A stretch of 64,000 nucleotides of DNA. Origin: Holosporales bacterium. Its GTDB lineage: Bacteria > Pseudomonadota > Alphaproteobacteria > RUG11792. The notes under the pieces are model-generated. The model was not told the origin of the DNA. It made no database searches and saw only the letters and a program-made list of their open reading frames with translations. How positions within the stretch are numbered: the first letter of the stretch is position 1; each line of letters opens with the position of its first letter. This document shows, in pieces, positions 58,101 to 58,705 of this stretch. The translations under genes and the position numbers were made by a program. The stretch lies in assembly GCA_031266135.1 (NCBI GenBank), contig JAISBP010000007.1, positions 617 through 64,616 on the forward strand, written 5' to 3'.

Positions 58101-58243
58101 AGACTTCTTTCCAAACCTTCAGAACCAGATCTTATGGAAGGAGATCCGGCACTCAGAACCGCAGCGTACTTTAACGCACGTGAGGATTTGAGTACCGGCT
58201 CGACGCAGCAGAAGACTGATTATGGAGATTTCGAGAGAAATCT
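58101..58243 (-). repeat. RPE-like element, near-full copy (reverse orientation on the plus strand)
   Basis: AGACTTCTTTCCAAACCTTCAGAACCAGATCTTATGG ... GCAGAAGACTGATTATGGAGATTTCGAGAGAAATCT. It contains the stop codon of the ferredoxin-like gene. Confidence 0.85.
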
Positions 58244-58705
58244 TATGGCTCCAGACGGGCACACGTGCTCACACAATCCACAGTATGCGCACTTTTCTCG
58301 ATGGTATACGTGATTGTTTTTATCAATAATCTGTATGGCATTACATGGGCATATCTGCATGCATGCCATACACCCAATACATTTAGACCTCTTCCCTAAC
58401 TCTTCATAATCAGTTTCTTGGTGCGTCAATCCGGTGCTCGACTCCTCATATACACTCAAGTATACTGCGGATCTGTGCTCCGTCTTTCCTTCCAATAATT
58501 CTGATTCTGGAGAGTTTGTGACAAGAGGTCTAATACCAGCGGTTTCCACATTCTCATCGAGAGTAAAATACCCTCTAAAATTCGGTGATCTTTCCATATC
58601 CGATAATTTTCGTGTGACAGGTTTCCTGAAGAGGCATTTAATGCCAAAGCAAAGGCTAAGTATAATATCATAAAGCAGTATCTTCTTTAAGAATTCCCTA
58701 ATCAT
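58220..58705 (-). CDS. 2x[4Fe-4S] ferredoxin-like protein (NuoI/HycF-like N-terminus) with an in-frame RPE insertion
   Basis: [12 protein letters not shown] and [12 protein letters not shown] cluster motifs, with FRKPVT...SPNFRG upstream. A 49-codon RPE peptide lies between them. The start overlaps the lepA stop (ATGATTAG). Confidence 0.55.
58384..58532 (+). repeat. RPE-like element, 149-bp copy inside the ferredoxin-like CDS
   Basis: TAGACCTCTTCCCTAACTCTTCATAATCAG ... TTCTGATTCTGGAGAGTTTGTGACAAGAGGTCTA. It is translated on the minus strand as [45 protein letters not shown]. Confidence 0.9.

Follow-up and report, generated by a model that had tools for sequence, protein, structure and literature searches.

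The closest described counterparts of the repeat analyzed here are the RPE-1 elements of Rickettsia (Ogata et al. 2000 Science 290:347; Ogata et al. 2002), which, according to the RPE review (PMC2229807), reside in-frame in conserved genes. The same review cites the guanylate kinase of R. conorii as a protein that is translated with its RPE insert and is active (Abergel et al. 2006). Neither that review nor the Rickettsia papers that we consulted mention a pair of sense and antisense copies in one small gene. In the Holospora/Holosporales literature that we searched, neither an RPE1-type element nor a complex I devoid of NuoE, NuoF and NuoG (NuoEFG) is described for the lineage, and a preprint reports that complex I is lost altogether from some Holosporaceae (bioRxiv 10.1101/719211).

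Here, we describe a gene with such a pair in the genome of a Holosporales bacterium. The gene lies in a window of 64,000 nucleotides (the whole stretch of DNA that was analyzed) from an assembly of 971,581 bases (0.97 Mb) in 25 contigs with 43% G+C. We consider it likely, on the combined evidence set out below, that this is a tolerated, translated RPE1-type insertion in a working, shortened NuoI, which has an antisense copy of the same element as its tail.

The mini-nuoI Locus and Its Two Repeat Copies

The preliminary description of this locus, made by reading the DNA letters, had divided a gene following lepA into 57 N-terminal codons, a 49-codon insert formed by a copy of a repeat, a 140-bp core and a second, opposed copy of the repeat, and its coordinates and counts proved correct to the base (Table 1). 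We term the gene mini-nuoI; its 486 nt of coding sequence thus combine a sense copy as a loop and an antisense copy as a tail.

Table 1. Features of the lepA–mini-nuoI locus (window coordinates) and complex I partner genes on other contigs (contig:coordinates)
Feature	Coordinates	Strand	Description
lepA	58698-60509	-	603 aa; TAG stop within the opening codons of the mini-nuoI ORF
mini-nuoI ORF	58220-58705	-	161 aa plus TAA; the genome's sole NuoI homolog
lepA/mini-nuoI stop/start overlap	58698-58705	-	8 nt, ATGATTAG; ATGATTAR conserved in at least 8 of 17 species
Native N-terminal part	58533-58705	-	57 codons; amphipathic helix 2-26, FRKPVT and NFRG motifs, strand 46-49
Linker ENVETAGI	Within native N-terminal part	-	Genus-specific
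RPE1-type element copy 1	58384-58532	-	149 nt; sense orientation; translated as R59-S107
Core between copies	58244-58383	-	140 nt; contains both CxxCxxCxxxCP motifs
First CxxCxxCxxxCP motif	58346-58381	-	C109, C112, C115, C119, P120
Second CxxCxxCxxxCP motif	58256-58291	-	C139, C142, C145, C149, P150
RPE1-type element copy 2	58101-58243	+	Antisense to mini-nuoI; spans codons R155-P161 plus stop; 3' hairpin
mini-nuoI TAA stop	58220-58222	-	Inside the conserved CTCCATAATCAG motif of the element
NuoB	C10:45813-46259		Open frame; N2 Cys motifs
NuoC	C3:67183-67659		Matched
NuoD	C3:74765-75901		Open frame; HHPSTHG
NuoH	C19:9853-10677		Open frame
NuoK/L/M	C21:22783-26355		NuoL and NuoM open frames; NuoK matched
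NuoN	C12:18646-19776		Open frame

Copy 1, with the termini TAGACCTCTT...AAGAGGTCTA, opens at base three of codon I58 and closes at base one of codon K108, adding exactly 49 codons after the native 57. It is read in the only open frame of the element, the same frame as in the gyrA copy, which confirms what had been claimed for it. The insert ends just short of the first cluster ligand, C109, which lies two residues past it (S107, K108, C109), and Pfam places a 2x[4Fe-4S] dicluster domain at residues 106–155. The peptide of copy 1 scores 24.9–25.3 bits against the RPE1 model TIGR01045, under the cut-off of 30, because copy 1 has a 3-nt-longer 'VTN' variant at its start. From its subfamily consensus, it differs at 16 of 149 positions, about seven of which lie outside this variant 5' end.

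Copy 2 scores 32.4 bits against the same model when translated on the plus strand. The last codons of mini-nuoI (AGA TTT CTC TCG AAA TCT CCA TAA) lie inside its palindromic stem, which bears out the earlier proposal that the second copy supplies the stop of a protein ending in AIRFLSKSP. Where copy 2 overlaps the coding end (22 nt), it holds eight mismatches, as against 12 in its other 124 nt; since this overlap is far more diverged, R155 and F156 might be either native or element-encoded. Each copy forms a long hairpin on folding (−54.8 and −57.6 kcal/mol; z of −6.4 and −7.5 against shuffled sequence for copies 1 and 2, respectively), and both are among the more diverged of the genome, with nearest-neighbor identities of 87% (copy 1) and 84% (copy 2) against a family median of 89%. 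A promoter and terminator scan of the locus returned nothing over shuffle level and no intrinsic terminator behind copy 2.

With respect to the target-site duplication expected of a MITE, the TA at both element ends belongs to the inverted termini, and the nearest empty site, that of the closest relative (G004), is strongly diverged. The right flank of copy 2 (TGTTAAATTTGGG; 58085–58100, TGTTAAATTTGGGAG) resembles the native ATAAAATTT codons, and it likewise resembles TGTTAAAATTTGTGGGAAT / TGTTAAAATTTGT(A/G)GGAAT, found about 45 nt past the ortholog stop in G003 and G005. In the latter two (loci L004 and L008), a relA/spoT-like gene comes next downstream; the downstream synteny differs in the present genome.

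An RPE1-Type Element Family in the Genome

A repeat search and genome-wide BLAST established that the two copies belong to a dispersed element of about 146–150 nt with the same inverted termini, for which BLAST gives 158 matches and of which 78 copies are 120 nt or longer across 971 kb. Members of the family fold at −54.8 to −62.2 kcal/mol (z of −6.4 to −9.5), and the consensus peptides score 39.7 bits (family) and 42.5 bits (subfamily) against TIGR01045; the element is thus a member of the RPE1 family (NCBIfam TIGR01045) known from Rickettsia. One of the six frames of the consensus is open. On its antisense strand, two frames stop within 0–8 codons and the third after about 39.

The use of the copies by genes is biased in orientation across the genome: within ORFs of at least 150 codons, reading continues in the sense frame through 37 of the 78 near-full copies and in antisense through one. 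In-frame copies are carried by roughly 33 genes, mini-nuoI among them; other hosts include gyrA and, with two copies each, MurG and two radical-SAM Fe-S enzymes (Pfam-checked). By eye, further hosts look like isoleucyl- and aspartyl-tRNA synthetases and a DNA ligase, the last again with two copies. About six to eight long ORFs terminate 0–7 codons into an antisense copy, and their occurrence at several loci indicates that the supply of stops by reversed copies recurs in this genome.

Several details of the family are recorded here for reference. Pairs of in-frame sense copies within one gene occur at C5:8198/9110, C1:10814/11429, C17:39804/40293 and C12:1066/1376, the four genes being the one that by eye resembles a DNA ligase and the three covered by the Pfam check, namely the two radical-SAM Fe-S enzymes and MurG. 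ORFs with 178–595 codons upstream that end 0–7 codons into an antisense copy are found at 37187–37332 of the window (C9:37803–37948), C17:91771–91901, C11:27085–27231, C18:1149–1296, C3:112226–112363 and C21:21497–21633. A longer subfamily (about 161–167 nt; e.g., C12:9011, C13:33551, C3:102563, C19:47139 and C8:38032) is distinguished by about 15 additional, CATTCATCTCCTTGG-like nt at its center, which in sense copies give an extra QGDEYK-like stretch. Across the order, the element is patchy: translated matches are found in G000 (89), G012 (50) and, in smaller numbers, G001, G002, G004 and G005, and it is essentially lacking in G003 and most other genera.

The Host Gene as a Shortened NuoI

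The preliminary description had called the gene ferredoxin-like and, more specifically, NuoI/HycF-like. The core has both of the CxxCxxCxxxCP motifs that serve clusters N6a and N6b in NuoI, with all eight cysteines intact. In place of the first label, the gene is better named as a shortened complex I subunit NuoI, and on the second label family models, profile alignment and structure comparison agree. NuoI models come out as the best curated family matches whether the insert is included or removed, all at scores well under the respective cut-offs; for TIGR01971 (cut-off 113 bits), which is not reached, mini-NuoI scores 37.7–42 bits with the insert and 49 bits without it. The same model, run on 13 genomes of the family, matches only mini-nuoI (27–47 bits), and on eight other Alphaproteobacteria it finds six normal NuoI proteins (about 170 bits) and no match in the remaining two. 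The ortholog profile aligns over its full length (positions 4–100) to NDUFS8/TYKY/NuoI chains and also to subunit N of MBS, the top Foldseek ranks go to complex I subunit I and HycF, and a NuoI-type N-terminal helix and KPVT/FRG segment precede the ferredoxin core.

The partner genes of complex I are scattered over five other contigs (Table 1). No match to NuoE, NuoF or NuoG was found in this genome, and NuoF is lacking in 13 of 13 family genomes and present in eight of eight outgroup Alphaproteobacteria. Accordingly, the best interpretation of the mini-nuoI product is as NuoI in a complex I that has scattered genes and no N-module. As a separate observation on this gene set, the scattered genes without NuoEFG look like a complex I lacking its N-module that is served by a NuoI of about 105 aa.

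Orthologs, Empty Sites and Coupling to lepA

The genome falls into a separate order, and an order-wide search found one copy of mini-nuoI in 36 of 41 species-level genomes (23 genera). With the exception of G009, the open frames across the order are of 91–132 aa, and a frame of insert size is seen only in the present genome. In the orthologs of 16 related species (86–127 aa), no insertion interrupts the segment that joins the first strand to the first Cys motif, and the site is empty in all of them. Decay of the Cys motifs in orthologs, which the preliminary description had named as a ground for refutation, is not seen: the eight cysteines, P120, G21 and T31 show no variation across 17 species, the present one counted, and mini-NuoI retains all 14 of the invariant or near-invariant residues. 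The closest ortholog is 61% identical, a distance at which synonymous sites are saturated. At the exact spot of the insert, G004 displays a lineage-specific short extension (ESEECGIICN versus ENVETAGI), which indicates that the length of this linker was already variable. A protein homolog search and a search for other contigs encoding the mini-NuoI protein yielded, respectively, the locus's own 91-aa gene call as the sole return and none.

At the other end, the native C-termini of most orthologs close 2–14 residues past a conserved AI(K/R)F (up to 26 in G002), and in this species the corresponding tail is LSKSP followed by the element's TAA. A candidate sense RPE at the same 3' site, the long tail of the G002 ortholog (SNPSPKSAEPDF...), was rejected, its alignment to the consensus being no better than those of shuffles.

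The start of mini-nuoI overlaps the lepA stop by 8 nt, as had been noted, and the ATGATTAR form of this overlap recurs in at least eight of the 17 species examined. This recurrence supports the earlier suggestion of co-translation with lepA and fits translational coupling, such that, judging from the DNA, mini-nuoI is probably coupled to lepA across this order. The junction also bears on the public gene call for the locus (58220–58495), which gives a 91-aa protein (MEGKTEHRS...) with a TTG start within the element. Taken at face value, the call would mean that translation starts at this TTG, codon 71 of the long frame, to make a soluble ferredoxin-like protein without the NuoI helix, and that the 70 upstream codons are a dead remnant. 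We view this as very unlikely: although the call corresponds to exactly this product, no Shine-Dalgarno-like sequence precedes the TTG, gene callers often misplace starts in unusual sequence, and the upstream 57 codons are as conserved as the core (65% and 63%, respectively, against G004), remain in frame and keep the overlap with lepA. The conservation, frame and lepA coupling of these codons lead us to regard the 91-aa call as probably a mis-annotated start.

Integrity of the Interrupted Protein

The end of the insert, two residues before the first cluster ligand, is an awkward spot for 49 extra residues, and a reading of the locus as a young pseudogene has to be weighed. Under it, the insertions would have inactivated mini-NuoI, and the frame would be open only by virtue of the stop-free sense frame of the element and the short time elapsed. 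The position of the insert, which parts strand 1 from the cluster motif, the loss of the native tail and the reported absence of any complex I from some relatives (bioRxiv 10.1101/719211) are all compatible with such decay. Nevertheless, we judge it unlikely. All 161 codons are open, with the 14 conserved residues retained, and the relative divergence of both copies from their nearest neighbors in the genome counts against a recent origin. Further, the gene is the sole NuoI of a genome with open frames for NuoB, NuoD, NuoH, NuoL, NuoM and NuoN, and many plainly essential genes of this genome carry the same insert.

Simulated neutral drift points in the same direction. With survival taken to mean that the frame stays open and all 14 conserved residues persist, 17% of the simulated genes survived at 3% drift, 4% at 5.6% (the distance of copy 1 from its subfamily consensus) and 0.2% at 10%. 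This favors continued selection on mini-nuoI, with the clock being a soft one, since part of the divergence of copy 1 may predate the insertion. AlphaFold2, run with the ortholog alignment, gave a pLDDT of about 90 for helix 2–26 and the core at 107–157 and below 50 for residues 52–100, low values being expected anyway for an insert missing from the alignment; the insert-free G004 protein (AlphaFold) showed a like pattern with a low-confidence linker at 46–56.

If the protein is retained, the insert itself could in principle have been co-opted, with the acidic 49-residue loop beside the first cluster giving a complex I devoid of its NADH-oxidizing module a surface for docking or regulation. 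The loop is indeed hydrophilic and acidic, and with NuoE, NuoF and NuoG not found, NuoI may be exposed on the side that is normally in contact with NuoG. We nonetheless hold co-option to be highly improbable: the insert is present in one of 36 species, the same peptide occurs in dozens of unrelated proteins, and beyond its variant 5' end copy 1 has accumulated five nonsynonymous changes and one synonymous change from the subfamily consensus, a ratio with no indication that the peptide is constrained.

A Model for the Two Insertions

Returning to a tolerated insertion in a working gene, we propose the following course of events. The ancestral gene would have encoded a shortened NuoI, a two-[4Fe-4S] subunit of complex I, directly after lepA in this reduced-genome alphaproteobacterial order. 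In the present species alone, an RPE1-type palindromic mobile element would then have inserted into this gene in the one frame and orientation in which the element is open. Its target would be a flexible linker between the N-terminal helix and first strand on one side and the first Cys motif on the other, where the element would add a hydrophilic loop of 49 residues. A second, more diverged copy, reversed at the 3' end, would have swapped the short native tail for about five to seven element-encoded residues and a TAA, and would also have put a long hairpin behind mini-nuoI. The replacement of tail and stop is what the antisense orientation predicts, with two of its three frames stopping within eight codons. 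Both insertions may owe their survival to the fact that just two kinds spare a needed protein: those within a tolerant loop that are in sense and in-frame, and those at the extreme C-terminus that are antisense.

The anatomy of the locus, the family to which the element belongs, the empty sites of relatives and the orientation bias across the genome are shown here; from them, we infer production of the 161-aa protein, its binding of both clusters and its function in a complex I without NuoEFG. More tentatively, and with somewhat less than even confidence, we suggest that the lepA-coupled mini-NuoI of about 105 aa is the working electron-entry subunit of a scattered, NuoEFG-less complex I throughout the order and that it still works here with a 49-residue loop of selfish-DNA origin at a distance of two residues from the first cluster ligand. 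If this is true, mini-NuoI with its loop would be a natural test of how much a subunit of an Fe-S relay tolerates. A conserved, lepA-coupled mini-NuoI in a lineage without NuoEFG may even outweigh the insertion as a lead for the bioenergetics of endosymbionts. At the level of annotation, the locus would expose an error, the public call being a 91-aa fragment.

Comparison with Known Systems

As a kind of element, the repeat is known; the new aspects are the host gene (nuoI) and a lineage outside Rickettsia. The locus is a clean, if ordinary, instance of something already described, and it adds a clear example from beyond Rickettsia of RPE-type elements inside essential genes and shows both survivable modes, the translated loop and the stop-giving tail, in one short gene.

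Like the Rickettsia RPE-1, the element is about 146–150 nt long, with inverted termini, a long hairpin, a high copy number and one open frame; its copies likewise form in-frame extra peptide segments, and its consensus peptide is over the RPE1 cut-off. Unlike RPE-1, it is hosted by a separate order of Alphaproteobacteria with genomes of about 0.5–1.1 Mb, copy 1 falls below the cut-off (25 bits), and nuoI is a new host gene relative to the RPE-1 record. The R. conorii guanylate kinase, as cited in the review, is similar in being a conserved protein with an in-frame RPE and provides a precedent for tolerated loops; however, that enzyme was tested at the bench, whereas the present case is made at the level of sequence, and here the insert adjoins an Fe-S ligand.

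The host protein shares with NuoI/NDUFS8 (TYKY)/Nqo9, HycF, MbsN and NdhI the N-terminal helix, the KPVT...FRG segment and the two CxxCxxCxxxCP motifs. It departs from the standard NuoI in size (about 105–120 aa without the insert versus 160–180 aa) and in its place after lepA, outside any nuo operon. Finally, in replacing the C-terminal residues and stop of its host, the 3' repeat is comparable to the small repeats and MITEs that supply gene tails (PMC2229807, PMC10969869), but it differs from those tail-supplying MITEs in that a member of the same family, in the reverse orientation, is also translated inside the same gene.
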